This document shows positions 4,728 to 32,923 of a stretch of DNA of 35,719 nt, one piece after another (the stretch's first letter is position 1; every line of letters starts with the position of its first letter). The stretch lies in the sequence record SRR22947725_2340; one strand, written 5' to 3'. The notes under the pieces are model-generated. The model was not told the origin of the DNA. It saw only the letters and a list, made by a program, of their open reading frames with translations, and made no database searches. Made by a program: the position numbers and the translations under genes.

Positions 4728-4774
4728 AATCAAAGCTTTTTATCTACTCAACAGGGTATGAAACCACAATCCCT

Positions 4775-8525: not shown

Positions 8526-8526
<1 letters not shown>
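6151..8526 (+). CDS. DUF1549 (PSCyt2) + DUF1553 (PSD1) planctomycete-type cytochrome c protein
   Basis: HWAFQP, NPIDAF, RRLYHDLIGLKP, FGERWGRHWLDVARYADT, CARCHDH heme motif, SGRLELA, NPLTSRVMVNRIW, PTHPEILDHLA, RRAVY and TTVPQQALF. Confidence 0.92.
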
Positions 8527-9928
<1,402 letters not shown>

Positions 9929-9932
<4 letters not shown>

Positions 9933-10351
9933 AAGTGTACTTCGCAGGCTCGATCCGGGGAGGCCGGGAAGATCAGCAAAAGTATTTAGAATTAATCGAT
10001 TTTATCTCGACCAAAGCAGAAGTTCTTACTGAACATGTCGGGTCCCACTCAATTGGAAAAATCGGAGAGGATGCTCTCGATGACATTGCAATCTACAAGC
10101 GTGACATGGAATGGCTCGAGGAAGCCGATGCCGTGATTGCTGAAGTCACCACCCCTTCCCTTGGAGTTGGCTATGAATTAGGAGTAGCCGAAAAACTTAA
10201 CAAACCCACCCTTTGCCTTTTCAATGAAGGCAAGAAGGATCAAACATTATCCGCAATGTTGACGGGCAATTCAAATTTTCTAAATTACCACTACCAATCT
10301 TTATCCCAGGCTAAACAAAAAATAACCGATTTTTTAAGCCTGGGTCTTTAG
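9929..10351 (+). CDS. DNPH1/Rcl-like 2'-deoxynucleoside 5'-phosphate N-hydrolase (nucleoside 2-deoxyribosyltransferase family)
   Basis: YFAGSIRGGRED, VLTEHV, D.EWLEEADAVIAEVTTPSLGVGYELG and LSAM closely follow recalled DNPH1 motifs. The GTG start overlaps the upstream stop (GTGA). Confidence 0.88.
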
Positions 10352-11248
10352 CTTTTTTAGAAACTCACCGGGACTCACTCCGGTCACCCGTTTAAAAACA
10401 GTCGAAAAATACTGACTGGATGAAAAACCCAGGCGATGAGATACTTCTTTAATATGCCATGAGCCCTGACTCAGTAATTGCTCGGCCTCGCGAACACGCT
10501 GACGATTAATAAAATCCAAAGGAGAATATCCGACTTGCTGACGAAAAATTTTACGAAACGCAGTCTCTGAAATACTCATTGATTTTGCAAGATGTTCAAT
10601 CGTGGGTGGACTATCCAAATTCTGAGTAATTTCTTTTATGCAATTCTGTATACCCTCTGAAATATCCGATTGGCCCAAATTCCCACCCTCCGCCGTATAA
10701 TCCCGGATTACTCTGACAAGTAAGTGATGAAGAAGAGCTCGACAAACCAGGCGTGAATGTTCGCTCGGAGCCCGGTGTTCGTCTACTATATCCTGAAACT
10801 GCCCCCCTATTTTACGAGAAACAGGGAATGCCCTAATTTCAAAACTATCCAAAGCGGACTTAATTTTTTGGGTCTGCTTCAAATCAATGCCAGGTAAAGC
10901 ACTCTCTTCATTCAATGCTATCCGTAGCCAAAAATGTTCACAGGGCTCAAGGGCACCAGTACGGCTTCCGTGACGTTCGCCTGGACGAATCACCAACATG
11001 GTACCCGCCCGCAAAATATAATTACTTTCCTCCACCCACCAATTCACTTCCCCATTTACAATATAATGGATCTCATACTCGCAGGGATGTGCATCCTCCT
11101 CCAGCGCTTGATCAAAAGCCTTACTAAAGTGAAGCCAACCGAGAATAGCCAATTCAGGAAGGAGCAAACTATTTTTTTCAAAGGTAATATGCTGCCGCCC
11201 AGGTTCTGGTCTAAAATCTCTCCACACATCTGACTTATTACCCGACAT
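10334..11248 (-). CDS. AraC family transcriptional regulator (cupin sensor + HTH)
   Basis: Cupin motifs H..YEIHYIVNG and IRPGERH. C-terminal TIEHLAK..FRKIFRQQVGYSP..IKEVSHRLGFSSSQYFSTVFKRVTGVSP. ATG at 11248 preferred to 11308 because a TTGACT lies 35 nt upstream of it. The 3' end overlaps the convergent DNPH1-like gene by 18 nt. Confidence 0.92.
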   Translation of the reverse strand: MSGNKSDVWRDFRPEPGRQHITFEKNSLLLPELAILGWLHFSKAFDQALEEDAHPCEYEIHYIVNGEVNWWVEESNYILRAGTMLVIRPGERHGSRTGALEPCEHFWLRIALNEESALPGIDLKQTQKIKSALDSFEIRAFPVSRKIGGQFQDIVDEHRAPSEHSRLVCRALLHHLLVRVIRDYTAEGGNLGQSDISEGIQNCIKEITQNLDSPPTIEHLAKSMSISETAFRKIFRQQVGYSPLDFINRQRVREAEQLLSQGSWHIKEVSHRLGFSSSQYFSTVFKRVTGVSPGEFLKKLKTQA

Positions 11249-11283
11249 GAAATAAAGAATGATTCCGAAAAAGAGAAAGTCAA
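11249..11283 (-). promoter_or_regulatory. Candidate leaderless promoter for the AraC gene
   Basis: Minus strand: TTGACT (11283-11278), 16 nt, CATTCT, 7 nt, then ATG at 11248. Confidence 0.5.
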
Positions 11284-11288
11284 CGACT

Positions 11289-11400
11289 TGTATAAATTTC
11301 GAAACCATTGATATTCAAAACTAAATTCGCTTTTCCTTAGCACTTAATTAGAAAATAATGAAACTTTGATTCCTACAGTTTGGCTATGTATAAATTTCGA
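11289..11400. promoter_or_regulatory. Perfect 14-bp direct repeat TGTATAAATTTCGA (11289-11302 and 11387-11400), candidate operator pair
   Basis: Two identical copies with starts 98 nt apart, in the divergent AraC/operon intergenic region. Confidence 0.55.
11366..11394 (+). promoter_or_regulatory. Candidate sigma70 promoter for the glycan operon
   Basis: TTGATT (11366-11371), 17 nt, TATAAA (11389-11394). The -10 box lies inside the second repeat copy. Confidence 0.45.
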
Positions 11401-11416: not shown

Positions 11417-14400
11417 ATGAAATACCCATTCAATACCATTAAAGTTATTTTATTCTACACCACGCTAATTCTATTTACCTGTGTAAGTGTAAGCCTGACC
11501 GCGGCTAAAAAAGCAACCCCTGAGGAGATTCAGAAAATTACCGAAGCTATTCCCGCCACTATCCAATCTGCAAAGAAATACAAGGTTTTGGTTTTCTCCA
11601 AAGCGTTTACTTATTACCACAGCTCCATCGCTGTAGCAAAAGAGATGGCCCGACAAATGGGTGAAAAAACCGGTCTCTTTGAAGCTGATTTCACAGATGA
11701 CCCCAAGGATCTCAGTGCTGAGAACCTGAAAAATTACGACACTGTCTACTTGAATAATTCAACCAGTATTGAAAGAGGCCTGACCACTGAAAAAATGCGG
11801 AAGGATTTTATTGAATATGTAAGAAACGGCGGTGGTTTGGTTGCTATTCATGCGGCCACGGATGGCGGATGGCCCGAATATACTGATATGGTGGGAGGAA
11901 ATTTCAATGGGCATCCATGGGGGCATCAAGGCACTTACTGTATCTGCAATGAGGATCCAAAGCATCCCATTGTGAATGGAATCTTCGATGGTAAACAGAG
12001 CTTTAATCTCAATGATGAGTTGTATCAATACAAAGACTTCGATCGAAAAAAAGTGAGGGTATTACTTTCTGTCGATATGTCGAAATTTGAAAATCATCGG
12101 GGTGGACGAAAGAGGGAGGACAATGACTACGCAATGGCCTGGGTCAAAGAATTTGGTAAGGGTCGAGTCTTTGTATCCAGTCCGGGTCACAATCATCACA
12201 TCTATTGGAACAAGGATATCCTTAAGATGTGGTATCAGGGTTTTCGATTTGTTCTCGGGGAACTTGATGCGGAGACTGAATCTATCCAAAAGCCAAGTTA
12301 TGCCCTACCGCCTAAAGAAGGAGAACAGGCCCCCATCGTTCGTTTCAAAACCCCGGAAGAGAGCCAGGAATCGTTCAAGGTCCAACCGGGATATTCCCTT
12401 GAGCTCGTAGCGGACAATCCCATGGTCACCGAACCAACCGTCTGTGTATGGGATGGAAATGGGAGAATGTATGTGGCCGAGTGGCGCACCTACATGCAGG
12501 ACATAAATGGTACCGGTACTAATGATCCGGTCAGCCAGGTCGTTCGTCTTGAGGACAAAAATGGGGATGGGGTTATGGATCACAAAACCATCTTCGCAAA
12601 AGACCTGCTCCTCCCGCGAATGATCCTGCCCCTGCTCGATTCTGTTCTTATCGCGGAGTCCAACACCAATGATATTTTTGAATACTTCGACCGTGATAAT
12701 GACGGAGTCGCTGAGGAGAAAAAGATTTGGTTCGAGGGTGGAAAACGCGGTGGTAATGTCGAACACCAACCCTCAGGATTAATTTGGAGTATGGACAATT
12801 GGCTCTACCTGACATACAGCGACTACCGACTTCGTTTGCATAATGGTAAAGTAATTAAGGGCGAAACCAAGGGAAACCGGGGCCAATGGGGATTGACTCA
12901 GGATAATGCCGGAAAAGTCATGTATGTGGATGCCGGTGCCGGCATTGGACCCGTCCATCCACTATTTCCAAATATTTACACAAAATGGCACCCCAAATGG
13001 GTTATGGCGGAAGGTTTCAGGGAGGTCTTTGCCATTGATAACATTGCGGATTCGCAGGGCGGATTTGGTAGCATGCGGGCCAATAACTCTGCCAAGAGTT
13101 TCACCGCAACCTGTGGACAGGCCATCTTCCGGGGGGATCGTTTGCCCAAGGATTTAATTGGTAATTTATTCTTTCATGAACCAGTTGGACGCCTGACCCG
13201 GCGGGCAAAAATCAAAACGGACTCCATGGGTCGGCGCGTGCTTCATAATGCTTATATAGAAGACGAATTTGTAACCAGTTCGGACGCCAATTTCAGACCG
13301 GTTAATTCGGCAACTGGACCGGACGGTACTCTCTATATCGTCGATATGCACCGCGGAGTGGTACAGGAATCTGCCTGGGTTCCGAAGGGTTCCTTCATTC
13401 ACTCCTCCATTAAGCACTATGGACTCGATCAAAATGTACAACGCGGACGAATTTATCGGGTCCGTCACTCTGGCTTCACACCCGGACCGCGTCCCAACAT
13501 GCTCAACGAAACATCCAGTGAACTGGTAAGCCATCTTTCCCACCCGAACGGATGGTGGAGGGATGAGGCCCAGAAATTAATCATTGTCAAGGGAGACCAG
13601 ACTGTGCTTCCCGCACTGCGCCAACTGGTGAAAAACTCTTTAAACCCACTGGCCCGACTGCATGCTCTCTGGACAATAGAGGGATTAAATGCAATTGACT
13701 TGGATTTTCTTAAAACCGTTTATCAGGATAATGATCCGACAATTCGGGCGGCAGCCATTCGGATGACTGAACCATTCTTTCATCAAGAAATAAGTACCAT
13801 TTCCGCCCTTCAATCTTTGGTTAGTGATCCACATCACGATGTTGCTATTCAACTTTTACTCTCTGCCTCTACCAAAGTTACACCTGAAACTCGGGCACTG
13901 GCTGGTTCCGTTTTGGCAGAAAATCCATCCAATACATACCTCAAGGAAATTGATGATGAATTGAATAAGGATTATTTTGCGGAAGTGGCACGGCAAAAAG
14001 AATTAGCCCAGTTAGAGGCGGAAGAAGTGGCCTTACTCAATGCAGGCAAAAAACATTTCGAAGCACTTTGTGCCACCTGCCATGCCCCGGATGGAACTGG
14101 AGTCAAGACTCCAGACGGCAAAATGAAAATGGCTCCCTCTTTCGTTAACAATCCCACCGTGATCGGCTCCAAAGATGTACTTGCAAAAGTCGCTCTCCAA
14201 GGAATTTCAGGACCTTTACGCGGAAAATCTTATATGGGTGGGTTCATGATGCCCTTGAAGACAAACGACGATCAATACATCGCTTCCGTGTTAACTTACA
14301 TACGCAACAGCTTTGGTAATAAAGCAGGAATGATTAAAACGGAGGAGGTTGCACAAGCTCGTGAGGAAACCGCGAGTATGACTCAGGCCTACACGGAGGC

Positions 14401-15259
14401 CTCTCTCCGTGAAATTCTGCTCAATTCCGGGAGCGAAATCAAACTTTGGAAACTTTCGGCAAGCCATGGACAAAAGCATCTGCAATTCCTCCAGGATAAG
14501 GATGAAAAGACGACCTTTGCAACCAAGGCGGCCTTAAAAGTAGGCACTTGGATCGAGGCCGACTTCCCTCATCAGAGGAATGTATTCAAAATCATTCTCA
14601 CTGCCAAAGGTGGGGATTACCCGGGTATGTTAAAAGTGGAAACATCCGAGAACGGAGATTCCTGGGTTACAGTCGCAGATCAGGTTAAGGGATCCCAGGT
14701 TACTACGATTCCATTCGACATGGTGGTGGCTAAAAAAGTTCGGATCACCAGCCTGGAGGAAAAAAATAGTTGGTGGCAATTGTACAAACTCGAAATAATT
14801 GGTCCGGGCATGGGTGATGTTGATCAGTACAAACCTTCCAACCGTCATTACCTCCAACTTAGTGACGCAAAAAAAGTCCAAGTTGGCTGGAGCACCGCTA
14901 AACAGAATCGATCTGTGACAGGAGGAGAGCTAAAAGTGGCAGGCCAAAAGTTTACCCATGGTATAGGCACTCATGCACACAGCGAAATCACCTATGATCT
15001 GAATGGAAAAGGGTATCGACGATTTTATAGCATGGTGGGACACAATGACGGTGGACGGGATACCTACCTGACTTTTGAGGTTCATGTGGACAACAAAAAA
15101 GTTTTTGACAGTGGAAATATGACAAAAGGAGAACCTGCCAAGGCATTGGATATTTCCGTTCAAGGAGCAAACGAACTCAAGTTGGTAGTTACCAATGGTC
15201 AGGATGGGAAACCAGAAGGTGACCACGCGGACTGGGGCTATGCTTTCCTTGTGAAATGA
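11417..15259 (+). CDS. Multidomain secreted protein: ThuA-like + PVC-type dehydrogenase propeller + HEAT + cytochrome c + F5/8C (CBM32-like) + NPCBM/NEW2 (CBM51-like)
   Basis: ThuA motifs KVLVFSKAFTYYHSSI, GGGLVAIHAATD, DELY and GKGRVFVSSPGH. Propeller motifs WDGNGRMYVAEWRTYM and FRPVN..GPDGTLYIVDMHRG. Heme motif CATCH with distal MMP. Discoidin-like segment KVETSENGDSWVTV. NPCBM motifs GIGTHAHSEITYDL and GDHADWG. Confidence 0.85.
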   Translation: MKYPFNTIKVILFYTTLILFTCVSVSLTAAKKATPEEIQKITEAIPATIQSAKKYKVLVFSKAFTYYHSSIAVAKEMARQMGEKTGLFEADFTDDPKDLSAENLKNYDTVYLNNSTSIERGLTTEKMRKDFIEYVRNGGGLVAIHAATDGGWPEYTDMVGGNFNGHPWGHQGTYCICNEDPKHPIVNGIFDGKQSFNLNDELYQYKDFDRKKVRVLLSVDMSKFENHRGGRKREDNDYAMAWVKEFGKGRVFVSSPGHNHHIYWNKDILKMWYQGFRFVLGELDAETESIQKPSYALPPKEGEQAPIVRFKTPEESQESFKVQPGYSLELVADNPMVTEPTVCVWDGNGRMYVAEWRTYMQDINGTGTNDPVSQVVRLEDKNGDGVMDHKTIFAKDLLLPRMILPLLDSVLIAESNTNDIFEYFDRDNDGVAEEKKIWFEGGKRGGNVEHQPSGLIWSMDNWLYLTYSDYRLRLHNGKVIKGETKGNRGQWGLTQDNAGKVMYVDAGAGIGPVHPLFPNIYTKWHPKWVMAEGFREVFAIDNIADSQGGFGSMRANNSAKSFTATCGQAIFRGDRLPKDLIGNLFFHEPVGRLTRRAKIKTDSMGRRVLHNAYIEDEFVTSSDANFRPVNSATGPDGTLYIVDMHRGVVQESAWVPKGSFIHSSIKHYGLDQNVQRGRIYRVRHSGFTPGPRPNMLNETSSELVSHLSHPNGWWRDEAQKLIIVKGDQTVLPALRQLVKNSLNPLARLHALWTIEGLNAIDLDFLKTVYQDNDPTIRAAAIRMTEPFFHQEISTISALQSLVSDPHHDVAIQLLLSASTKVTPETRALAGSVLAENPSNTYLKEIDDELNKDYFAEVARQKELAQLEAEEVALLNAGKKHFEALCATCHAPDGTGVKTPDGKMKMAPSFVNNPTVIGSKDVLAKVALQGISGPLRGKSYMGGFMMPLKTNDDQYIASVLTYIRNSFGNKAGMIKTEEVAQAREETASMTQAYTEASLREILLNSGSEIKLWKLSASHGQKHLQFLQDKDEKTTFATKAALKVGTWIEADFPHQRNVFKIILTAKGGDYPGMLKVETSENGDSWVTVADQVKGSQVTTIPFDMVVAKKVRITSLEEKNSWWQLYKLEIIGPGMGDVDQYKPSNRHYLQLSDAKKVQVGWSTAKQNRSVTGGELKVAGQKFTHGIGTHAHSEITYDLNGKGYRRFYSMVGHNDGGRDTYLTFEVHVDNKKVFDSGNMTKGEPAKALDISVQGANELKLVVTNGQDGKPEGDHADWGYAFLVK

Positions 15260-15263
15260 TTTG

Positions 15264-16304
15264 ATGACAGACCTTGCCCAACGCAGCCCTCTTAATCCGT
15301 TAATTACTCCTTCTCAGGTTAACTCATACCATCCTGATACGGAAGTAGAATGCCTATTGAATCCGGGTGTTTTTCAATTCCGGGAAATGACCTGGTTAGT
15401 TGTCCGGGTCGCTGAACGGCCTGAACAAAAAGAAGGAGAAATTTCGTTTCCGATCATTAAAAACGGATCAGTAGAAATTGTATCCTTTCGATTAGATGAT
15501 CCGTTATTGGATGTAAGTGACCCAAGGGAACCCCGTTATAATGGTGTAACCTACTTATCAACCCTTTCACACTTAAGATTATTCAACAGCGAAGACGGGG
15601 TTCATTTTAAAGATGCGGGTTGGCCTAACTTATTTGGAAAAGGTGATTTGGAAAGCTACGGAATAGAAGACTGTCGGGTTGCTTCGATGAAGGATGGTTC
15701 TTTTCTACTTACTTATACCGCCACTTCCGAAAATGGATACGGTGTTGGGTTGCGCCGAACCTACGATTGGAAAACACATGAAGAATTTGGGATGATACTT
15801 CCCCCTGCCAACAAAGACTGTGCAATCTTCGAAAAGAAAATTAAGGGGGAATATTTTTGTTTTCACAGACCAAGCGGAGTGGGCCTAGGCGGTCACTATA
15901 TTTGGCTGGCTTCCTCTCCGGATTTATTCCATTGGGGAAACCATACATGCCTCGCAAAAACTCGCGAAGGGATGTGGGATTGTTCTCGAATTGGTGCGGG
16001 AGCGGCCCCGATAAAGACCGAGCGGGGATGGTTGGCAATTTATCATGGGGCAGACCATCAAAACAGATACTGTCTGGGAGCTATATTACTTGATAAAAAC
16101 AATCCAAGTAAAGTAGTAGGAAGGAGCAAAAAACCGATTATGGAACCCACTGCCGACTACGAAAAAGAAGGCTTTTTTGGAAATGTTGTCTTTACAAATG
16201 GCCACATTGTGAAAGACGATCAACTTATTCTTTATTATGGTGCTTCCGACAGTGTAATTTGTTCCGCCGAATTTTCCATTTCGGAAATACTTAAAACCTT
16301 ATGA
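15264..16304 (+). CDS. GH130 glycoside phosphorylase, Lin0857-like (putative beta-1,2-mannobiose/oligomannoside phosphorylase)
   Basis: NPLITP, LVVRVAERP, SFRLDD..DPR, YLSTLSHLR, YGIEDCRV, NKD, HRPS, WLASSPDL, PIKTERGWLAIYHGA and EP.ADYEKEGFFGNVVF match my recollection of Listeria Lin0857 throughout. No signal peptide. TTG at 15261 is an alternative start. Confidence 0.85.
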   Translation: MTDLAQRSPLNPLITPSQVNSYHPDTEVECLLNPGVFQFREMTWLVVRVAERPEQKEGEISFPIIKNGSVEIVSFRLDDPLLDVSDPREPRYNGVTYLSTLSHLRLFNSEDGVHFKDAGWPNLFGKGDLESYGIEDCRVASMKDGSFLLTYTATSENGYGVGLRRTYDWKTHEEFGMILPPANKDCAIFEKKIKGEYFCFHRPSGVGLGGHYIWLASSPDLFHWGNHTCLAKTREGMWDCSRIGAGAAPIKTERGWLAIYHGADHQNRYCLGAILLDKNNPSKVVGRSKKPIMEPTADYEKEGFFGNVVFTNGHIVKDDQLILYYGASDSVICSAEFSISEILKTL

Positions 16305-17167
16305 GATCCGAAAAATTAATTTGGGAAGGCTTCCCCGATCATGACATATATAATATTACTGCCCCTTTTCATTGGATGGGACGAGATGTAATCGCTGGAC
16401 GGGTTGAAAAAAGAACCGAAGAACTCTCTCAAATTGTATTATTCGAAAAATCTGCCAACGGTTGGACTCCAGTTCCCAATGCACCGGTTTTTTCTGGACT
16501 GCAGGATCCTTGTGTTACCCGGATAAATGGAAAGCTATTGCTTGGCGGGGTACGCTTCCCCGTGATCATCGGAGATGATCAAAATGCCTGGCAGATGGAA
16601 TTCTTCATCGAGAATGAGGGAGGCAAGTTTGAAAAGGTTCTGACCGGACCACCCAAGATGAAAGATGTTCGCTTCCTTCAACTTCCGGATCACCGAATAT
16701 TTGTGTTAACCAGACCACAAGGAGAGAAAGGGGGTCGGGGGAAAATTGGATTTTGCATTGTGGATTCCCTCGCAGACGCAACCCACGATGTAATTGATCA
16801 GGCTCCCCTTTTTGATCACTGTGTGGAAAAATTATGGGTCGGGGCAAATGAGGCTCATAATCTAAAAAACGGCAGGATTGGTGTACTGGGTCACATTGCC
16901 GAATTTGACGAAGATCAAAATCGACACTACTACGCGATGGCATTCGCAATTGATCCAGAAGAAGGAACCTCTACTCTGCCTGAAATTATTGCCAAGCGTT
17001 GTGATTTTCCGAAGGGAGAATCTAAGCGCGAAGATCTTGAGGATGTCATCTTCTCCGGAGGGATCCAACGGCAAGAAAATGGAAAAGCCCTTCTCTTTGC
17101 AGGTCTAAGTGATGCGGAAGCAGGTTTCATCGAAATACCCGATCCTTTCCTTCAATACGAAAACTGA
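16301..17167 (+). CDS. DUF1861 / GT108 family protein (Leishmania MTP-like beta-1,2-mannosyltransferase/phosphorylase homolog)
   Basis: DIYNITAPF, IAGRVE, LQDP, GP.KMKDVR, TRPQG..GGRGKIGF, GANE, IGVLGHIA, HYYAMAF and DVIFSGG are characteristic of DUF1861. ATGA overlap with the GH130 gene. Confidence 0.82.
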   Translation: MRSEKLIWEGFPDHDIYNITAPFHWMGRDVIAGRVEKRTEELSQIVLFEKSANGWTPVPNAPVFSGLQDPCVTRINGKLLLGGVRFPVIIGDDQNAWQMEFFIENEGGKFEKVLTGPPKMKDVRFLQLPDHRIFVLTRPQGEKGGRGKIGFCIVDSLADATHDVIDQAPLFDHCVEKLWVGANEAHNLKNGRIGVLGHIAEFDEDQNRHYYAMAFAIDPEEGTSTLPEIIAKRCDFPKGESKREDLEDVIFSGGIQRQENGKALLFAGLSDAEAGFIEIPDPFLQYEN

Positions 17168-17168
17168 G

Positions 17169-19142
17169 GTGCGCCTGCTTCTGCTCATAAGTTTATTTTT
17201 CGGTTGCTTGGGCCAAGCTCAAAACTTGCCAAGTATTGCGAAATTCCCAGACCTTCCTCCTGATTATTCTTTACGGGATTGGAAAAAAACTGCCCTTGAT
17301 TACGATGCTTTGGTCTTTGATCAGAACCGGACCGGAAAATTCCTTCCCCTTATTTGGATGGACGATTCGAAAAAGGTAAACCCAGCCAATGGTTTTGGCC
17401 TTCCCACTTATGTTGGGGATTCACGGCAAAACCCGAAAACCGCTTTACATGAAGCAATCACCGGTATGGCATCGGTCCTGAATGGCACCTTACTTGGAGA
17501 AGACAAGTCAACGTATATTCCCATGCTTGCCACCCATTTTCACCAAAAGAATGGAATTGGACTGTACCTTAATCAGGTGGGCACAAGAGGGGATAGTTTC
17601 TGGTATGATCTTTTGCCCAGTCTATTATTCGTTCATCTTTACCATCACTACCCACAAACATCGATTCTAGCAGAACAGTTCCATTCAACTATTAGTACAT
17701 GGGAGCAGATTGCCGGGCAACTGGGTAACAATTTTGATCATACTGGATATGATTTTCACACGAAACTACCGGTGAACCGCGGATGGTCGGAAGCAGATAT
17801 CGTGGCAGGTCTGGCTTGCTTACAATATATTGGATGGAAGAAAACGCGGAACCAATCCTTTTTGGAGATGAGTAAAAAATGCCTTAATTGGATGGACCGG
17901 AGAAAAACCAATCCATACTACGAATGTCTTGCCCCCTATGGTGCTTATGTATCCGCACTTTATAATGCAGAACGGAACGGTACTCACCAGACTGCAAAAT
18001 TCATTGAATGGGTCCTCGCTGGAGATAATCCTAGAAAATGGGGTGCGATGTTTGAATCATGGAACGGAATCCCGGTTCATGGTCTAATTGGCAGTGTATA
18101 TCCAAATTATGAATATGCCTTTGCCATGAACACTTTCCAGGCAGTTGGCATCATGGCACCCATTGCACGCTATGAAGACAAGTTTGCCCGGGATTTAGCC
18201 AAGTGGATTCTAAATGTTTCTTCCAACAGTCGATACTTTTACCCAGATGCATGGTCCCCTGAACAGCAGACCAGTTACAAATGGGCCCAAGAACATGATC
18301 CCACTTTTTGCATTCCCTACGAAGGAATTAGAAAACAGGGAACCATTCGAAATTATCCCGAAGTAGACCGCATGAAATTGGGCACCCTCAAATTGGGAGA
18401 ATCAACCAACCCAGATAAAGACATGCTCCTGACCGCAAACCATGAGGGTGAAGTTCACTACGAGGGAGAGATTAACTTACCCACCGGAATGGTTCATTCC
18501 CTGATTGCAGTGATCAGGCATAGAAAAATCGAGAACGAAATTCAAGTCTTCATCCAAGGAAACCCCACCAATCAGATCAATTATCTCGCCCAAAAATCGG
18601 ATCACCAAAAGCTTTCTATCAAGGGGAAAGGAATGATTGAATTGGTGGTGAGGGCAAAAGGACTACAACCCGGTGAAGTAATTCAAGTCCAGGATCTGGT
18701 GGTGGAAACCAGGTTACCCAATCCGCCCCATGTCGGTGGAGATGCTACTATTCATGGGTGGGGTGAGACTGACCTCGGACTCTATGGTGGATCCAATGTC
18801 GGCTACCTTGCCGCATTGATTGAACCGACCAATATTGAAGGGATTCTTGCGATTGACCCAGTGGCAACCGATATCATAAACCCAGACGCATTTCCCACTC
18901 GTCTATTCTATAATCCATTCCCTAAAGCAAAAACCATTCATTGGAATTGTGGAAAACATCCGGTACGGGTGTACGACGCACTTAGCAATAAAACCATTTA
19001 TTCATCCGTTCACGGTTCACAGAACTTTGAAATTCCTGCCAAACAAGCAATCATGCTTGTCTCCACCCCAGCGGATAAACCCTTGGAAAGAATCAAAGGT
19101 CACCTAATTTGCGAGAATATCGTGGTCGACTTCCAACTCTAA
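17169..19142 (+). CDS. Uncharacterised secreted protein, probable carbohydrate-active enzyme
   Basis: GTG at 17169, 1 nt after the upstream stop, gives a signal peptide (MRLLLLISLFFGCLGQA|Q). Aromatic- and acid-rich blocks RDWK, HEAI, FWYDLLP, EAD, YYE, YAFAMNT and PYEG. I cannot name a family with confidence. Confidence 0.75.
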   Translation: MRLLLLISLFFGCLGQAQNLPSIAKFPDLPPDYSLRDWKKTALDYDALVFDQNRTGKFLPLIWMDDSKKVNPANGFGLPTYVGDSRQNPKTALHEAITGMASVLNGTLLGEDKSTYIPMLATHFHQKNGIGLYLNQVGTRGDSFWYDLLPSLLFVHLYHHYPQTSILAEQFHSTISTWEQIAGQLGNNFDHTGYDFHTKLPVNRGWSEADIVAGLACLQYIGWKKTRNQSFLEMSKKCLNWMDRRKTNPYYECLAPYGAYVSALYNAERNGTHQTAKFIEWVLAGDNPRKWGAMFESWNGIPVHGLIGSVYPNYEYAFAMNTFQAVGIMAPIARYEDKFARDLAKWILNVSSNSRYFYPDAWSPEQQTSYKWAQEHDPTFCIPYEGIRKQGTIRNYPEVDRMKLGTLKLGESTNPDKDMLLTANHEGEVHYEGEINLPTGMVHSLIAVIRHRKIENEIQVFIQGNPTNQINYLAQKSDHQKLSIKGKGMIELVVRAKGLQPGEVIQVQDLVVETRLPNPPHVGGDATIHGWGETDLGLYGGSNVGYLAALIEPTNIEGILAIDPVATDIINPDAFPTRLFYNPFPKAKTIHWNCGKHPVRVYDALSNKTIYSSVHGSQNFEIPAKQAIMLVSTPADKPLERIKGHLICENIVVDFQL

Positions 19143-19146
19143 CTCT

Positions 19147-20874
19147 ATGCACTGGATCGACTACAGTATCATTTTTCTCTACATCGCATTTGCGATTGGG
19201 GTAGGTATTTTCTTCTCTGGTAAAGCATCCAAAAATTCAGAATCCTTTTTTCTAGGCGGACGTTCTCTTCCCTGGTGGGCAATTTGTCTATCCATGATTG
19301 CCACTAGTTTCGCATCGGATACTCCAATCTGGGTGACGGAGGTGACCAGAAAAGACGGTCTCGAAAGAATGTGGTGGGTCATTGTTTCAGTCCTCCCCCT
19401 GATCATCGGTATTTTTCTTTTTTCCAGGCTATGGAGAAGAACGAACCTGATTACGGATGCGGAATTTTTTGAATTTCGATACGAGGGGAAATCCGCGGCA
19501 ATCCTGCGTGGGGTCCGGGCGTGTTACGGAGGAATCTTACAAAATCTATTAACCATTGGTTGGGTCACTTTTGGAATGAGTACGGTGATTGAAGTGCTCA
19601 CTCCTTTTGACCAGACACAGGCAATCGTAGTGCTTATGGCCGTGGCCCTTTTTTACGCCACCTTTTCCGGATTCTATGGAGTCGTGACCACCGATGTAGT
19701 TCAATTCTTCATCACTATGGGAAGCATGCTTGCCCTTGCCTGTATTGCCGTAAGCCAAGCAGGTGGACTGGACACTATTCTTACCGGGATTCGATCGATG
19801 CCTGAATACGGTGAAAAAACCCTCTCCCTCTTCCCCGATTTTTCAACCTTCAATTCAGATGTGCTCAAAATGCTGGTGATTTTCACCCTGGTCTGGTGGA
19901 GCGATGCCAACGGATATAATATGCAAAGAATGTCTGCCTGTCGAAATGAGAAAGACGCCATTCGGGCAACCTTATTTTACTCCATTTTCCAATCATGTCG
20001 CCCCTGGCTTTGGGTAGTTGTGGGGCTAGTTTCCATTGTGGCCTTCCCTGCCCTATCCGATCATAGCAAGGCGTACCCGATGGTAATCAATGAATATCTC
20101 GGGATTGGGCTGAAGGGACTTCTGATTACCGCCTTCCTCGCCGCTTTCATGTCCACTATAGACACGCACCTCAATTGGGGAGCTTCTTTCCTAACCATTG
20201 ATTTATACAAACGGTTTTACCGGAAAGATGCGACTGAAGCTCATTACGTGCGGGCTTCCAAATTATTTATGGTTTTACTTATGATCGCAGGTGCAATCAT
20301 TGCCACCCAAGTCGAATCGGTCAGCGGGGTAATGGAATGGCTCGCGTATCTGATGATCCCCGGAGGTATTGCCTCAGTCCTTCGATGGTTTTGGTGGCGG
20401 ATTAATGCGTTCACCGAGTTAACCGCTTTGGTAGGAGGATTACTTGGAGGCATTCTTTTTAAACTACTCGATTCCGACTGGATTGTTTGGGGAAAGCCAT
20501 GGGGCAGCTTCGCCTGGGAATTCAAAGTGGCTCTTTTAGTCAGTGTAATCTTCCCACTCAGTATTCTTGTTACTTTTCTGACCCAACCGGTATCCAAAGA
20601 AAAACTGATTACATTTTACCGCCAGGTTCGACCGGGTGGTGCATGGGGGCCAATCCGTAAAGCAGTGGGTAAAGTTTCTGGATCCACCCTCACCCTATCC
20701 AGTTGGCTCGATGTCATAGGAGGGGTCATGCTCTGCTATGGATTATCTCTGGCGATCGCCTATGCAATTCTTCTTCACTTTCCTGCCTGTGGTATCTGTT
20801 CCGCCATTTCATTCACGGGTGCTCTTCTGGTATGGAGATGGTATAAAAAAGAAGTGATACGCCTCACTGAATAA
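19147..20874 (+). CDS. Sodium:solute symporter (SSS/SLC5 family)
   Basis: About 13 hydrophobic segments. FFLGGRSLPWW, SMIATSFASDTP, FFEFRY, GVVTTDVVQF, MQR and AAFMST. Confidence 0.93.
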   Translation: MHWIDYSIIFLYIAFAIGVGIFFSGKASKNSESFFLGGRSLPWWAICLSMIATSFASDTPIWVTEVTRKDGLERMWWVIVSVLPLIIGIFLFSRLWRRTNLITDAEFFEFRYEGKSAAILRGVRACYGGILQNLLTIGWVTFGMSTVIEVLTPFDQTQAIVVLMAVALFYATFSGFYGVVTTDVVQFFITMGSMLALACIAVSQAGGLDTILTGIRSMPEYGEKTLSLFPDFSTFNSDVLKMLVIFTLVWWSDANGYNMQRMSACRNEKDAIRATLFYSIFQSCRPWLWVVVGLVSIVAFPALSDHSKAYPMVINEYLGIGLKGLLITAFLAAFMSTIDTHLNWGASFLTIDLYKRFYRKDATEAHYVRASKLFMVLLMIAGAIIATQVESVSGVMEWLAYLMIPGGIASVLRWFWWRINAFTELTALVGGLLGGILFKLLDSDWIVWGKPWGSFAWEFKVALLVSVIFPLSILVTFLTQPVSKEKLITFYRQVRPGGAWGPIRKAVGKVSGSTLTLSSWLDVIGGVMLCYGLSLAIAYAILLHFPACGICSAISFTGALLVWRWYKKEVIRLTE

Positions 20875-20875
20875 A

Positions 20876-22438
20876 ATGAAACTCCTGAAATCGGTCTATC
20901 GCTCCAGCTCTTTTTTGATCTTCCTTTTCATTTGGTTGGAGTCCACCGCGGCCCCAAAACCCAACATTCTTCTCATCACCGCCGACGATCTGGGATGGGA
21001 TTCATTGGGTTGCATGGGGAACCCCCTTGAAGGATTGTCCCCAAACTTGGATCGTCTTGCCTCCGAAGGCTTACTGATCAAGCACGGCTATGTGGCAACC
21101 CCCATTTGCGGGCCTTCCCGCCAAGCTCTTTACACCGGAAGGTTTCCACAGAGCACTGGACTTATGGGACACGGAGTCCAACCTCCTAATTGGTGGAAAT
21201 TAAATAGGAGCAATGCAGGAACTCAATCAATCACATCCCTCCTGTTACAGAATGGATACCTCAGTGGAATGATCGGAAAACACGGATCCGAATGGTGTCA
21301 GTTCAGTCTTCCCCCACACGGGCGAAACGATCAGACCGGAATGGGACGAAATCCGGAAAAATACTTCGCCTACACCCGTCAGTTCCTTGCCCGGGCAAAA
21401 GAAGAAAAGAAGCCTTTCTTTCTCGCCGCCAATGCCCATGACCCCCATCGCTATTGGGCAAGGCATCCAGATGAAACATCTAAATGGATCAATCAAATGA
21501 TGGGAGATGAACCATGGGAACGCCTGCTCAATGGCAAACCTTACCCCGATCCAAAGTCCAGATTTATACCCGAGCAATGCCCTGTCCCACCCGCCTATCC
21601 CAGGGTACCAAAATTAAAAGAATCTCTGGCTAGTTACTATGACTCCGTCAATCGAATGGACCAAGTTGTCGGAGGGGTGCTACAAGCACTAGAAGAAAGC
21701 GGACTGGCGAAAAATACCCTCGTGCTCTTTCTCTCCGATCATGGGATGGCGTGGGATTTAAGCAAGTGGTCCCTTTATCCATCCGGGGTCCGCACCCCAA
21801 TCCTTATTCGTTGGCCCGCACAAGTGAAAGCCGGACAAATTGATTCACAATCCATTGTTTCAGTTGTTGATATTGCTCCCACCATTGCGGAACTTTGTGG
21901 ATTATCCCCCATGACTAAAACCGATGGAAAATCTTTTTCTTCTTTATTGAAAAAACGACAGTCAAAATGGAAACGCTCCAGTGCATTCAGTTGTTTTAAT
22001 TATATGAACAATAGCCCTGAAATCGATAATTCGATTGATTCCTTTCCTTCTGATTTACCTGAAAAATTTGATCAATACCGACCATCTCGCTCTTTAAACA
22101 ACAAAGATTTCAGTTATGTATGGAATGGGTGGGCTGATGGCAATCGATCCTTACCGAGAACCATGCTCGGAGAATTTCACTGGATGATAACAAAACTGGC
22201 AGGGAACAAGACTAATTCGACCTACGGAGATTATATTGAAAGGAAAAATTTTATTGAATTTAGAACGCGGGAAGAATTGTACGATTTATCCAAGGATCCT
22301 GGCTGCCGTACCAATCTATCCAAACATGATAATCATCAAACTACCTTGAAGGATTTTAGGAATCGCATGAAAGAGGTTTTGCAAAAAACCAACGATCATG
22401 AATTAGATAACTACCTAACCTTCTTAAATAAAAAATGA
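20876..22438 (+). CDS. Formylglycine-dependent (S1) sulfatase, secreted
   Basis: Signal peptide. PNILLITADDLG, CGPSRQALYTG (CxPxR), GKH, DPH, SDHG and EELYDL..DP. Confidence 0.93.
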   Translation: MKLLKSVYRSSSFLIFLFIWLESTAAPKPNILLITADDLGWDSLGCMGNPLEGLSPNLDRLASEGLLIKHGYVATPICGPSRQALYTGRFPQSTGLMGHGVQPPNWWKLNRSNAGTQSITSLLLQNGYLSGMIGKHGSEWCQFSLPPHGRNDQTGMGRNPEKYFAYTRQFLARAKEEKKPFFLAANAHDPHRYWARHPDETSKWINQMMGDEPWERLLNGKPYPDPKSRFIPEQCPVPPAYPRVPKLKESLASYYDSVNRMDQVVGGVLQALEESGLAKNTLVLFLSDHGMAWDLSKWSLYPSGVRTPILIRWPAQVKAGQIDSQSIVSVVDIAPTIAELCGLSPMTKTDGKSFSSLLKKRQSKWKRSSAFSCFNYMNNSPEIDNSIDSFPSDLPEKFDQYRPSRSLNNKDFSYVWNGWADGNRSLPRTMLGEFHWMITKLAGNKTNSTYGDYIERKNFIEFRTREELYDLSKDPGCRTNLSKHDNHQTTLKDFRNRMKEVLQKTNDHELDNYLTFLNKK

Positions 22439-23856
22439 TTTCTACCTTATCGACTCGTTTCATAAATTTATTTCCCTTACTTGGATTTGCCCTTTTGTGC
22501 CAAATTCTTGTGGCTGAACAAACCAAGCCCAACTTTATCATTATCATCGGGGACGATGTGGGATGGGATGCCTTCGGATGTACAGGGATGAAAGAGGCAA
22601 GAACTCCGGCGATCGATCAGTTGGCAAACGAATCAACCATGATGACTCGTTTCTACTGCAGCGTTTCCCAATGTGCTCCCCTTCGGGCCGAGCTTTACAC
22701 TGGTCTATTCCCAATGAATAACGGCGTGCTCGCCAATGCGAGGAAAGAAAAACGTACAGGGATTAAAAATATCGCCGATCATTTGAATCCGCTTGGGTAC
22801 AAGGTTGGACTGTCTGGAAAGAAACACTTTGGCTTAGGCACTGCCAAGATCGATGAGATCCCCGGTTTTCCCTCCAATGCGAATGGATCGAACCAGATCC
22901 ATTCATTCGATGGAGTCGAACATTATATTTCCCAGGCAAAGAAGGAAGGAAACTCGTTTTGCGTGGTTATTGGGGCGACCCACGCACACCATCCATGGGA
23001 TCATGGAGAAGAATCAAATTACCCTGTGGGAAAAGTAAATTTACGTCCCCACTACATTGACACACCGGCCGCCCGGCAGGCGGTTGCCAAACATGCAGCC
23101 GAAGTCGAAGTTCTCGATCAACAAGTTCGCGAGACCCGCGAACTGATGAAGAAGATGGACTTGGGAAAGGACACGATTCTGATTTTCCTGAGCGAGCAGG
23201 GAATAGCCATGCCCCGGGGAAAATGGTCCCCCTACGAACACGGATCACGAGCCATTTGCCTGGCCCAGTGGAAGGGAAAAATCCTCTCACGCAAGACCGA
23301 TGCCCTCGCCATGTACTGCGACATCGTTCCCACATTGATCGACTTTGCAGGGGGGGGGAATCCCGGTCTGGACGGTAAATCACTCAGGAAACTATGGACC
23401 AGCAAGAAGATCAACAACCACCGTAAAGAAATCCTGATCTCCAATGTCCACCCATTCTGGCAAAAGGCCATTGTCACCGACACCTACAAATTAATCTGGA
23501 CCGGGCATCCGGAAAGAGAGCATATCTTCAGTAACTTCACATCTAAAAGTAAATTTTTCGCCAAACCTTGGATAGAATGGATAGAGAAGGCCCAGAATAA
23601 TCAAAGAGTGGCCCGCAAAGTTGATCATATCCTTCAGCCCAAAGCCTTCGAGCTGTATAATATCGTGAACGATCCATACGAAATCAAAGACCTTTCCAAT
23701 CTTCCCGAAAACAAGAAAAGAATCGTCACGCTCAAGGCGAAGCTCAAGAAATTAATGACCGACTGCGGGGAATCAACCACCCCTCCATTAGAAACAGCAC
23801 CCAAAACTAAGAAAGATAAGGGCAAGCGACGCAAAATCCAAAAAACCTCAAAGTAA
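22435..23856 (+). CDS. Formylglycine-dependent (S1) sulfatase, secreted
   Basis: Signal peptide. PNFIIIIGDD, CAPLRAELYTG, GKKH, SEQG and ELYNIVNDPYE. Lys/Arg-rich tail. ATGA overlap with the upstream gene. Confidence 0.9.
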   Translation: MISTLSTRFINLFPLLGFALLCQILVAEQTKPNFIIIIGDDVGWDAFGCTGMKEARTPAIDQLANESTMMTRFYCSVSQCAPLRAELYTGLFPMNNGVLANARKEKRTGIKNIADHLNPLGYKVGLSGKKHFGLGTAKIDEIPGFPSNANGSNQIHSFDGVEHYISQAKKEGNSFCVVIGATHAHHPWDHGEESNYPVGKVNLRPHYIDTPAARQAVAKHAAEVEVLDQQVRETRELMKKMDLGKDTILIFLSEQGIAMPRGKWSPYEHGSRAICLAQWKGKILSRKTDALAMYCDIVPTLIDFAGGGNPGLDGKSLRKLWTSKKINNHRKEILISNVHPFWQKAIVTDTYKLIWTGHPEREHIFSNFTSKSKFFAKPWIEWIEKAQNNQRVARKVDHILQPKAFELYNIVNDPYEIKDLSNLPENKKRIVTLKAKLKKLMTDCGESTTPPLETAPKTKKDKGKRRKIQKTSK

Positions 23857-25713
23857 ATGACCATGACTACAAAGACCCGCCTTCTAAACAAAATTGCACT
23901 TCTGGCATTTTTTGTATCTTGCACGCTCCCCTTAACCGGAAAAGTTATAAAGCCCAACATTCTCTGGATTACCAGCGAGGATAACAGTATTGAATGGATA
24001 AGTTGCTACGGAAGCAAGAATGCCAAAACTCCCAACATTGACCAGTTGGCGAAGGAAGGGTTCCGTTACCTGTACTGTTTCGATAATGGTGCGGTCTGTG
24101 CCCCTACCCGTTCCTCTTGGATTACCGGGATGCATTCGATTTCCAATGGAACCCAGCCGATGCGCAGCGGATTCGAGATTCCCGCCACGATCAGCTTTTA
24201 CAACGAGCTCCTGCAAAAAGCGGGCTACTTCACAAGTAATTGTTCGAAAACCGACTACAACCTCAGAGCACCCAGTGGTCGCAACCCCAAGAACTTCTGG
24301 AACTATTCCGGAAAGGAATATGCAGGAACTTGGAAACTGCGTGAAAAAGGCCAACCCTTCTTCACAGTATACAATATTGGAGAGAGTCATGAATCCAGAG
24401 CCTTTGGCGATCATAAGGACGAGTCCATCGATCCAGAGGAAATGATCCTCGCTCCCTACCATCCGGATCTTCCCGAAATGCGCAATACTTACGCCAAATA
24501 TGCCAGTGCCATATCTAAAATGGATTCTTTAGTGGGGCAAGCGATCGAAAACCTCAAGCAGGACGGACTCTATGAAAATACAATCATTGTATACAACTCC
24601 GACCACGGTGGCGTGCTTGCCCGCAGTAAAAGATTCCTCTATTCCAGCGGAATCCATTGTCCCCTGATCGTGCGCATTCCAGAAAAAATGAAAGCCCTTT
24701 ACCCAAAAGGGAAAACTCCAGGATCCACCATGGATCGGATTGTAAGCTTCATCGATATGCCCAAGACCTGGGTCAGCCTGACCGGTGCTGAAATGACAGA
24801 TAATTTTCAGGGCCGGATCTTTCTTGGTCCAAATACAGAACCTGAATCCCAGTACCATTTCTCGTGGCGAGAGCGTGCGGACGAACGATTCGACAATGTC
24901 CGGGTGATGCGTGATAAACAATTCGCTTATCATAAAAACTATGCTCCCTTTGCCCCCAACGGACAGTACCTTGCGTACATGCACAATATGAAGGCAACGG
25001 GTGCCTGGGAACGCCATCATTTGGCCGGGAAAACTAACGCGGTGACCGGTCGTTTCTTCGAACCCCGCCCATCCGAGGAATTCTACGATAACTTTAAAGA
25101 CTTTCACAATATTGACAACCAAATCGATGACCCATTGCACCAGACTAAGATTAAAGAACTCAAGAAAGAACTCCGCCGGCAACAACTCAAGCACTTTGAT
25201 TCGGGTCTCATGCCCGAAGAAATGAGGAACCGGATCATAAAGGAAAAGAATACCACGGTATATGCCTTTGTTCGGGACCCCAAGCTCTACCCATTAGCAC
25301 AATATCTCGACTACTCCGACCTTGCCCTGACCCGTAAAAAGAAAAACCTCAAGACCTTCATCAAGGGACTTGCGGACGAGGATCCGGTCAAACGCTACTG
25401 GTCAGTGATTGGCTTACTGCTCCTCGAAAAACAGGCCAAATCTGCGATTTCAGAACTGAAAAAAGTGCTCGGGGATCGCGATGAAATTCCAGCCTTTGCT
25501 GCCTGGGCAATTTATAAAGCCGGGGAAAAAACATTCGCCGAGAAATGGATGCTTGAGGCCATTACCCAAAATCCGGGAAACAAGACACTGGCCAATATCT
25601 TTGACTGGATGGGTACGGCCAGCCACTCCTTGCTCGCTAAAATTCCCAGCGATAAGCTCCCCCAAAAAGGTCTACTCAAAGATGTGATCAAACGATCAGG
25701 AGTACAAAATTAA
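23857..25713 (+). CDS. Formylglycine-dependent (S1) sulfatase with C-terminal HEAT-like helices
   Basis: Signal peptide. PNILWITSEDN, CAPTRSSWITG, KTDYN, HES and SDHG. C-terminal L.DEDPVKRYW HEAT-like repeat. Confidence 0.92.
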   Translation: MTMTTKTRLLNKIALLAFFVSCTLPLTGKVIKPNILWITSEDNSIEWISCYGSKNAKTPNIDQLAKEGFRYLYCFDNGAVCAPTRSSWITGMHSISNGTQPMRSGFEIPATISFYNELLQKAGYFTSNCSKTDYNLRAPSGRNPKNFWNYSGKEYAGTWKLREKGQPFFTVYNIGESHESRAFGDHKDESIDPEEMILAPYHPDLPEMRNTYAKYASAISKMDSLVGQAIENLKQDGLYENTIIVYNSDHGGVLARSKRFLYSSGIHCPLIVRIPEKMKALYPKGKTPGSTMDRIVSFIDMPKTWVSLTGAEMTDNFQGRIFLGPNTEPESQYHFSWRERADERFDNVRVMRDKQFAYHKNYAPFAPNGQYLAYMHNMKATGAWERHHLAGKTNAVTGRFFEPRPSEEFYDNFKDFHNIDNQIDDPLHQTKIKELKKELRRQQLKHFDSGLMPEEMRNRIIKEKNTTVYAFVRDPKLYPLAQYLDYSDLALTRKKKNLKTFIKGLADEDPVKRYWSVIGLLLLEKQAKSAISELKKVLGDRDEIPAFAAWAIYKAGEKTFAEKWMLEAITQNPGNKTLANIFDWMGTASHSLLAKIPSDKLPQKGLLKDVIKRSGVQN

Positions 25714-31916: not shown

Positions 31917-31927
31917 TGCCTGTACAT

Positions 31928-32875: not shown

Positions 32876-32923
32876 GGGATAATTACTTTACGGTTCATTA
32901 TCATGATCGATCAATTTTAAAAA

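Follow-up and report, generated by a model that had tools for sequence, protein, structure and literature searches.

The window analyzed here, i.e., the whole stretch of 35,719 nucleotides (nt) of sequence record SRR22947725_2340, contains at positions 17169..19142 (forward strand) a gene whose 657-amino-acid (aa) product appears to be an extracytoplasmic carbohydrate-active enzyme, most likely a glycoside hydrolase (GH) of an unclassified six-hairpin (α/α)6 family; we assign to this reading a probability of roughly 0.55. The product of this gene is referred to below as the target protein, and its homologs as the target family. It is almost certain that the target protein is a real secreted protein, and it is quite probable that it is carbohydrate-active and functionally tied to the β-mannoside phosphorylases encoded next to it; a hydrolase is, on balance, to be preferred to a lyase, an epimerase or a binding protein. 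The gene and its parts are as follows:

17169..19142, forward strand: target gene, encoding a secreted 657-aa protein of an unnamed (α/α)6 plus β-sandwich family (open reading frame (ORF), homologs and AlphaFold 2 (AF2) model)
17169..17228, forward strand: putative signal peptide, approximately residues 1-20 (sequence, hydrophobic run, low predicted local distance difference test score (pLDDT))
17241..18323, forward strand: predicted (α/α)6-barrel domain, approximately residues 25-385 (AF2, Foldseek, conservation)
18336..18713, forward strand: predicted β-sandwich insertion, approximately residues 390-515 (AF2 strands)
18726..19139, forward strand: predicted C-terminal β domain, approximately residues 520-657 (AF2 strands and family-wide conservation)

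The ORF is uninterrupted, starts with GTG and comprises 657 codons followed by a stop. An alternative GTG located upstream, at position 17109, would give a protein of 677 aa, and starts of this type underlie some public annotations of 676 aa (P0002, P0008, P0011 and P0012); such a start would overlap the preceding DUF1861 gene and bury the signal peptide, and the closest 657-aa homologs (P0003-P0005, P0007 and P0010) begin at the same start as the 657-aa ORF. The signal peptide claimed in the original prediction agrees with the N-terminus of the protein, which consists of Met/Val-Arg, a hydrophobic run of 12-13 residues and the motif GQA-QN; residues 1-20 are also the only ones with a low pLDDT (52-59) in the full-length AF2 model. 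A crude test for hydrophobic runs was positive for the target protein and likewise for 92 out of 121 homologs. Judging from the sequence, signal peptidase I probably cleaves after GQA, and the same N-terminal features are consistent with the export of the protein.

The full-length AF2 model has a pLDDT of 93.2 and a predicted template modeling score (pTM) of 0.91, while the N-terminal domain modeled alone (residues 20-390, about 12 helices) reached 96.4 and 0.93, respectively. The helical core with a β-rich insertion and C-terminus, originally read from the letters, is reproduced by the model, with helices in residues 38-376 and strands in residues 386-515 and 521-654; moreover, the core is modeled as a twelve-helix barrel whose Foldseek matches are mostly six-hairpin proteins, in agreement with the (α/α)-barrel that had been proposed. 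Conservation was computed over 261 family proteins. The columns of the insertion are filled in only a minority of them (about 86-96 of 261), and many cluster representatives match the family profile in two stretches that skip the insertion, whereas those of the C-terminal domain are filled in about 215-255 of them, which indicates that the core of the family is the barrel plus the C-terminal β domain.

In order to place the fold, the models were compared with the Protein Data Bank (PDB) using Foldseek. With the barrel alone, no match was obtained at E ≤ 1e-3; the matches listed had a probability of about 1.0, template modeling (TM) scores of only 0.3-0.52 and E-values of at least 1.2e-3, and they were mostly sugar-active six-hairpin proteins (GH76, the GH76-like AprG, AGE/YihS isomerases, GH8 CelA, GH88, GH47 and GH78), with a few that are not sugar-active (squalene-hopene cyclases and complement C5). 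The putative exported protein YPO2471 (7tem), with TM scores of 0.52/0.48 to the barrel, was also among the matches listed. The search with the whole protein retrieved GH127/GH146, GH9 and partial β-sandwich matches, with TM scores not exceeding 0.33; a phage tail protein and Cry toxins, which were among its top matches, were discarded, as they matched only part of a β-sandwich at TM scores of 0.1-0.3. Hence, this check, which the original prediction had suggested, returned no confident match to a characterized family: the fold superfamily, i.e., six-hairpin (α/α)6, is clear, and the predicted structure points to a likeness at the level of the superfamily only, with TM scores of 0.4-0.5.

The acidic residues anticipated for an active site are present as near-invariant carboxylates: E385 is conserved in 259 of 259 proteins, E252 in 251 of 261 (with Asp in 7 others), D525 in 243 of 249 and E208 in 237 of 259, followed by E95 (225 of 257, plus 24 with Asp) and by D210, which is Asp or Glu in 250 of 260. 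Conserved aromatic residues are W145, Y146, Y251, Y316, F318, Y335 (260/260), Y384 and Y539 (255/256); N266, R355 and Q367 are further conserved residues of the barrel, and the C-terminal domain shows conservation of G524, D525, Y539, N582 (255/255) and P583. All five motifs quoted earlier were found, i.e., HEAI (94-97), FWYDLLP (144-150), WSEAD (206-210), PYYE (249-252) and IPYEG (382-386), and in four of the five, as we counted them, they hold residues conserved throughout the family (E95, W145/Y146, E208, Y251/E252 and Y384/E385). The description of the protein as rich in Trp, Tyr, Asp and Glu holds locally, within such blocks, and does not hold for the overall composition (W 2.3%, Y 4.7%, D 5.2% and E 4.9%). 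No His is conserved anywhere in the family alignment (the best position has 119/259), and no Cys reaches a conservation of 85%. Catalysis depends on His residues in AGE enzymes, and on a Cys nucleophile together with a Zn site in GH127/GH146 enzymes. The conservation of carboxylates, together with the lack of conserved His and Cys, fits a carboxylate glycosidase and argues against AGE epimerases, toroid lyases and GH127/GH146; the lyase or epimerase that the original prediction had kept as an alternative is thereby weakened. In the AF2 model, the conserved barrel residues are located directly ahead of every second helix, these helices beginning near residues 144, 211, 255 and 319, and this side of the barrel may represent the catalytic face, as is usual in six-hairpin enzymes.

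The target protein had been regarded as an orphan, and this view has to be abandoned. A word-indexed search disclosed 133 homologs at E ≤ 1e-3, all of them without a name or called "hypothetical", save those whose names cite fused LamG, PKD or type IX secretion system (T9SS) modules. An exhaustive search, performed with a profile built from 48 members against 1.84 billion cluster representatives, retrieved 1593 matches at E ≤ 1e-3, 1163 at E ≤ 1e-10 and 621 at E ≤ 1e-30, and a pattern scan in which each GTDB species was represented by one genome gave 392 confirmed relatives. The 80 best of these 392 genomic relatives (loci L001-L080, none of which is from Bacteroidota) were used for the analysis of gene neighborhoods. 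The two closest loci, L001 and L002 (99% and 96% identical, respectively), are both labeled Opitutae/Opitutales, suggesting that the window derives from a marine-type Opitutales genome.

The claim that the protein lies outside described families was borne out by the sequence searches. The target protein had no Pfam match at E ≤ 0.01 and matched none of the NCBIfam families; scanning 62 family members against Pfam at E ≤ 1 gave no family in more than three members, and none at its own cut-off. The profile search of the PDB yielded no significant chain (best E-value 0.25); a phmmer match to a "urea transporter" chain (E 2e-4, 77 residues), lost in the profile search, was taken as noise. In the ESM Atlas, the clusters retrieved with the whole protein were all named "hypothetical protein"; when only clusters bearing other names were considered, an ulvan lyase N-terminal domain cluster (0.81) and a mixed GH127/GH76 cluster (0.77) were found, where scores below 0.9, as well as sub-threshold Pfam matches, were treated as leads only. 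No description of the target family or of an endo-β-1,2-mannanase was found in the literature, although the family may have been classified in CAZy/dbCAN very recently, and the titles and abstracts matching "2-mannanase" all concerned GH99 α-enzymes.

The genes surrounding the target gene are the following:

10334..11308, reverse strand: divergent AraC-family regulator (Pfam HTH_18 and AraC_binding; homologs in 14 of the 80 loci)
11417..15259, forward strand: first gene of the cluster, encoding a 1280-aa protein with ThuA, DUF7133, HEAT, cytochrome c, F5/8 type C and NPCBM domains (Pfam)
15261..16304, forward strand: GH130 of the β-1,2-mannoside phosphorylase type, without signal peptide (Pfam PF04041 and PDB matches)
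16301..17167, forward strand: DUF1861/GT108-type β-1,2-mannoside phosphorylase/transferase, without signal peptide (Pfam PF08950, E 8e-97)
19147..20874, forward strand: sodium:solute symporter (SSF), likely importer of the products (Pfam SSF and TIGR00813)
20876..25713, forward strand: three tandem secreted sulfatases (Pfam Sulfatase in each; signal-peptide-like N-termini)

The position of the target gene between the phosphorylases and the transporter was correctly described. The GH130 gene overlaps the DUF1861 gene by 4 nt, the target gene starts one base past the DUF1861 stop and ends four bases short of the SSF symporter gene, and the sulfatase genes follow the latter directly, with gaps or overlaps of 0-4 nt, so that the tight co-directional cluster spans at least positions 11417 to 25713. 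As had been stated, Pfam detects no other recognizable glycosidase catalytic domain in the operon. Signal peptides are present in the target protein, in the sulfatases and in the large product of the first gene, homologs of which occur in 6 of the 80 loci, and are absent from GH130 and DUF1861. Among PDB entries, the GH130 protein matches Uhgb_MS (9eqq, E 5e-150) and Lin0857 (5b0p, E 9e-85), one of the entries matched being titled as a 1,2-β-mannoside complex, and the DUF1861 protein matches Leishmania MTP-4 (6q50, E 2e-41), as well as MTP-1 and MTP-2. According to the available text of the respective papers, the MTPs of Leishmania mannogen have been placed in GT108 (PMC12814180), and a bacterial GT108 member is a bifunctional β-1,2-mannoside phosphorylase/transferase (PMC10913872).

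In order to assess whether these associations extend to the relatives of the target gene, the window proteins were searched with phmmer against all ORFs of the 80 loci, and the matches were counted by phylum label. The predicted co-occurrence with GH130/DUF1861 was found in 42 of the 80 loci (GH130 in 39, DUF1861 in 19), and in 32 of the 70 loci that remain once the ten closest relatives are removed; it rose to 25 of 38 among the loci having at least 5 kilobases (kb) on both sides, and in 34 of the 80 the partner lies within 1.2 kb of the family gene. Judging from the general rule that genomes carry few GH130 genes, this linkage is probably far above chance. The positive loci fall under 11 named phylum labels; by label, they are distributed among Verrucomicrobiota (18/26), Acidobacteriota (6/8), Bacillota (5/7), Planctomycetota (4/19), Fidelibacterota (2/2), Lentisphaerota (2/2), Kiritimatiellota (1/2), Binatota (1/1), Vulcanimicrobiota (1/1), one locus labeled Methanobacteriota and one of unknown label. 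A good number of the contigs are short, and Pfam gives one further weak GH130 match, in L071. The neighbors are of the β-1,2-mannoside type, as predicted, not only in the window: in a locus of Fidelibacterota/Marinimicrobia (L039), the adjacent GH130 belongs to a different β-1,2-specific lineage, being Teth514_1788-like and matching 1,2-β-oligomannan phosphorylase 9fj8 with an E-value of 2e-128.

Pfam scans of 59 plus 118 neighboring ORFs disclosed other recurrent neighbors, i.e., sugar transporters (SSF, MFS_2 and ABC), AraC/LacI/GntR regulators, SASA/GDSL esterases and large PF12831 FAD oxidoreductases, whereas GH63/MGH1-like, GH95, GH2 and PF10091 proteins are occasional, the PF10091 protein of L065 adjoining the family gene. 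Close homologs of the SSF symporter are located beside family genes in 14 of the 80 loci. The esterases stand beside family members in L012, L013, L017, L018, L032 and L065, and the PF12831 FAD-dependent oxidoreductases (477-1093 aa), often accompanied by an MFS_2 transporter and an esterase, recur in L012, L013, L017, L018 and L032, that is, in Verrucomicrobiota, Kiritimatiellota and Planctomycetota.

Two family paralogs are present in many loci, i.e., in those of Paenibacillus (L044, L040 and L050) and in L045, L048, L056, L057, L061, L064, L072, L074 and L077, and a cassette formed by a family gene, GH130 and, further along, a longer paralog recurs in Verrucomicrobiota, Planctomycetota, Binatota and Vulcanimicrobiota. 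In the Paenibacillus operon, the order is LacI, DUF1861, GH130, two permeases, a binding protein, a member of about 990 aa with a signal peptide and, after other genes, a member of about 545 aa without it. SLH, F5/8 type C, fn3, LamG, Ig-like, PATR or cadherin-like modules occur in 12 of the 31 long members examined and are absent from the other 19, and Pfam detected no other catalytic domain in any of the 31; T9SS tails are common among the members from Bacteroidota. Surface-anchored enzymes that degrade glycans are usually built in this modular way. The locus L006 (NZMM01000016.1), labeled "Methanobacteriota archaeon", shows the order AraC, GH130, DUF1861, family gene and SSF, with 61% identity to the target protein; its archaeal label is probably a binning error. 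In a locus of Armatimonadota without GH130 (L022:12157-17611, reverse strand), the family gene adjoins a PNGase F C-terminal domain protein and a NAGPA phosphodiester glycosidase, a neighborhood suggesting that some members might act on glycoproteins or on substrates of the phosphomannan type.

According to the mechanism that we propose, the target protein would be exported via its signal peptide; the barrel and the C-terminal β domain would bind a β-mannoside-containing glycan through the many conserved aromatic residues, and the carboxylates would cleave it, with E385, E252, E208 and D525 as candidates for the acid/base pair and its helpers. The oligosaccharides might then be taken up by the SSF symporter and phosphorolyzed by the cytoplasmic GH130 and DUF1861/GT108 enzymes to mannose 1-phosphate, the last step being suggested by the close similarity of both proteins to characterized enzymes. 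This role would resemble, by analogy, that of the secreted depolymerase of a polysaccharide utilization locus. The leading guess for the substrate, still unproven, is a β-1,2-linked mannan or a β-1,2-mannosylated glycan. Action on β-1,2-mannosidic linkages specifically is a tentative proposal, and the broader one, i.e., that the target family is a large and widespread unclassified glycoside hydrolase family with endo-β-1,2-mannanase activity, is about as tentative. The sulfatases of the operon, together with a SASA-type acetylesterase gene in the window (29854-30816, reverse strand), suggest that the real substrate is decorated; in the marine Opitutales operon, it is probably sulfated and perhaps acetylated.

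Several points weigh against the proposed hydrolase and its pathway. Enzymatic data for any member of the target family were not found, and a cleft lined by the conserved acids is deduced from the topology of the model. In 38 of the 80 loci, neither GH130 nor DUF1861 is present, none of the six Armatimonadota loci being positive and Planctomycetota reaching only the 4 of 19 given above; in Pyrinomonadaceae (L029), the adjacent GH130 is TM1225-like (E 4e-55) and nearer to β-1,4 than to β-1,2 enzymes; and the sulfatases and SASA/GDSL esterases suggest a decorated heteroglycan. Furthermore, bacterial GT108 and GH130 β-1,2 enzymes can run in the synthetic direction, as reported in the accessible portions of two papers (PMC10913872, PMC12814180), and the cluster, therefore, need not be purely catabolic; an environmental source of β-1,2-mannan for such bacteria is not established, according to the study on the Thermoanaerobacter cluster (PMC4264767). 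To these points, those in favor of a lyase, discussed below, have to be added.

Some of these observations could also be accommodated by a glycoside hydrolase of a new family acting on another linkage, i.e., a β-1,4- or β-1,3-mannanase, or a debranching enzyme exposing a β-mannoside chain, which is the best of the alternatives, although an unlikely one. It would account for the TM1225-like GH130 of Pyrinomonadaceae, for the acetylesterases recurring beside the family, for the GH63/MGH1-like, GH95, GH2 and PF10091 genes of some loci and for the many loci without GH130. However, the partners in the window and in most of the linked loci are closest to β-1,2-specific enzymes, and the characterized DUF1861/GT108 members act on β-1,2-mannosides, as far as the available parts of the papers describe them (PMC10913872, PMC12814180).

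The second alternative is a toroid-type polysaccharide lyase (PL), or a polymer-level uronate C5-epimerase, acting on an anionic sulfated algal polysaccharide, in which case the phosphorylases would serve another branch of the locus. The build of the target protein, a toroid plus a β-sandwich, is that of PL12, PL15, PL17, PL39 and PL40, in which, according to the available text of the source, the active site is located at the domain interface (PMC12915356), and invariant residues are indeed present in both domains of the target protein; Y251, Y335, Y384, Y539, N266 and N582 could serve a Tyr-based elimination. The three sulfatases of the operon and the ulvan lyase cluster of the ESM Atlas, the latter as a lead only, point in the same direction. 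As for the epimerase, the D-glucuronyl C5-epimerase C-terminal domain (C5-epim_C, PF06662) was matched below threshold by 3 of the 62 members (best E-value 0.0026; 13.2-17.7 bits versus a cut-off of 23.3), over just one helical hairpin (profile positions 11-69 of 188) and not by the target protein itself; it was thus rejected as an assignment. On the other hand, a His serves as the base in PL40 and in the enzymes structurally related to it, as stated in the accessible part of the same paper (PMC12915356), while the target family has no conserved His; no PL or heparinase Pfam match was found in the target protein and in the 62 members, and no lyase was present among the Foldseek matches listed. 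Moreover, the family-wide partner, GH130/DUF1861, acts on neutral β-mannosides, sulfatase matches occur in only 14 of the 80 loci, mostly of the marine Opitutales type, to whose operon the sulfatase genes are specific, and neither GH88/GH105 nor recognizable uronate-catabolism genes were found in the Pfam scans of the 59 plus 118 neighbors. On the whole, a lyase or C5-epimerase appears improbable.

Even less probable is a cell-envelope protein without catalytic activity, serving to bind glycans or as a scaffold. It would be in keeping with the richness of the family in conserved aromatic residues, with the partial similarity to the putative exported protein YPO2471 and with the fact that catalysis by the target protein is only predicted; nevertheless, near-invariant carboxylates are maintained across 261 diverse members, cytoplasmic paralogs exist in the Paenibacillus operons, and, in large surface proteins composed of several modules and already equipped with some for binding, the family domain is the sole candidate for catalysis. 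Finally, an AGE-type epimerase or isomerase, such as the mannobiose 2-epimerase that is the partner of GH130 in β-1,4-mannan pathways, is scarcely credible: AGE proteins are among the best barrel matches listed (3gt5, YihS, cellobiose 2-epimerases and mannose isomerase), and the pairing of an epimerase with GH130 is described in the available text of one paper (PMC12871903), but the target protein has a signal peptide while its GH130 partners are cytoplasmic, it has no Pfam match, AGE included, nor a conserved His in its family, its relatives bear SLH, T9SS or carbohydrate-binding-module-like modules typical of extracellular enzymes, and the partner GH130 is of the β-1,2 type rather than a mannosylglucose phosphorylase.

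Some other genes of the window deserve mention. After the last sulfatase gene, on the opposite strand, an ORF of 100 aa (25726-26028, reverse strand) encodes a 6-O-methylguanine DNA methyltransferase DNA-binding domain (E 1e-27); its location between the last sulfatase and an 861-aa protein marks the probable end of the operon. This secreted 861-aa protein (26178-28763, forward strand) has no family match apart from a sub-threshold one to DUF3604 (E 4e-4), and its homologs are found only in L001, L002 and L004 among the 80 loci; it represents a second unexplained protein nearby. In the region 29854-35117 (reverse strand), the SASA esterase gene is followed by MR_MLE enolase-superfamily, DHDPS-like, DAO-type FAD oxidoreductase and proline-racemase-family genes, which we take to resemble a hydroxyproline catabolism set. 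Another giant secreted protein of the PVC type (1140-4733, reverse strand) shares DUF7133, HEAT and cytochrome c domains with the equally PVC-type product of the first gene of the cluster and adds a 3-keto-disaccharide hydrolase domain; the presence of the latter and of ThuA in the window presumably hints at an oxidative (3-keto-glycoside) breakdown of glycans. The window also contains, at 6151-9932 (forward strand), a PSCyt2/PSD1 (DUF1549/DUF1553) plus DUF1501 gene pair; such pairs are, we assume, typical of Planctomycetota and Verrucomicrobiota, in agreement with the Opitutales assignment derived from L001 and L002.

Returning to the hydrolase, its interest lies in a gap of the known pathways. 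The β-1,2-mannoside phosphorylases (GH130 subfamilies and GT108) have been characterized in detail, while the available text of the Thermoanaerobacter cluster paper leaves the producing enzyme unnamed and states that a source of β-1,2-oligomannan is not known for that genus (PMC4264767). Secreted and found with these phosphorylases under 11 phylum labels, the target family is the obvious candidate for the first step that is lacking. If this were true, it would define a new CAZy family, provide an annotation for no fewer than 1593 clusters of proteins at present named "hypothetical" and a tool enzyme for β-1,2-mannans, including fungal and kinetoplastid glycans, and direct attention to a reservoir of glycans so far neglected in the carbon cycle of seas and soils. 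In particular, an endo-β-1,2-mannanase would imply that β-1,2-mannans, for which kinetoplastid-type mannogen, fungal β-1,2-oligomannosides and a putative marine sulfated form would be candidates, commonly serve as a carbon source in the environment, with a secreted depolymerase of their own acting ahead of GH130/GT108. If the target protein were a lyase, or acted on another glycan, the family would still be a large unannotated family of carbohydrate-active enzymes worth characterizing.

The comparison with known families supports the view that the target family is a new one within the known six-hairpin fold superfamily, since every specific family tested failed, with the exception of the toroid lyases. 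The GH76 α-1,6-mannanases (BT2949 and BT3792) and the GH76-like transaldolase AprG have an (α/α)6 barrel similar in size and are among the best matches of the N-terminal domain (4v1r, E 2.2e-3, TM 0.42; 4c1s, TM 0.47; 9lfy, E 1.2e-3; overall, E 1.2e-3 to 4e-3 and TM 0.41-0.47); moreover, GH76 members are extracytoplasmic mannan-degrading enzymes. The catalytic motif of GH76 is an adjacent Asp-Asp pair. The target family has no such conserved pair, and membership was rejected also for the absence of a PF03663 match, the identity of 8-12% and TM scores below 0.5; in addition, the target protein differs from GH76 in its extra conserved C-terminal β domain and in its gene partners, which are β- and not α-mannoside enzymes. 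The AGE superfamily shares the six-hairpin barrel (3gt5, TM 0.50/0.48; 1fp3, TM 0.48), and some of its members are partners of GH130 in mannan catabolism; besides the lack of a Pfam match and of a conserved His and the signal peptide mentioned above, the target protein is unlike them in being secreted, in having extra β domains and in its multi-modular surface-anchored relatives. The GH127/GH146 β-L-arabinofuranosidases resemble the target protein in combining a barrel with a β-sandwich (full-length Foldseek E-value of about 1e-4), and were rejected on the basis of TM scores of 0.25-0.31, a root-mean-square deviation of about 28 Å, no PF07944 match and no conserved Cys. The endo-β-1,2-glucanase-like family PF10091, which we take to be GH144, was also rejected, having no match in the target protein.

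With PL12, PL15, PL17, PL39 and PL40, the target protein shares the toroid plus β-sheet build and has conserved Tyr and Asn residues; these lyases, according to the accessible text, employ a His base and a Tyr acid at the domain interface (PMC12915356), whereas the target family lacks a conserved His base and a Pfam match, and its partners act on neutral mannosides. At the level of the whole system, the closest parallels are the clusters of Thermoanaerobacter (Teth514_1788/1789) and Listeria (Lin0857). For the former, the available text proposes the uptake of β-1,2-oligomannan, assigns no enzyme to its production and also lists a GH5 and two hypothetical proteins (PMC4264767). The same downstream logic described there, i.e., a transporter and cytoplasmic β-1,2-mannoside phosphorylases (PMC4264767), is found in the operon of the target gene.

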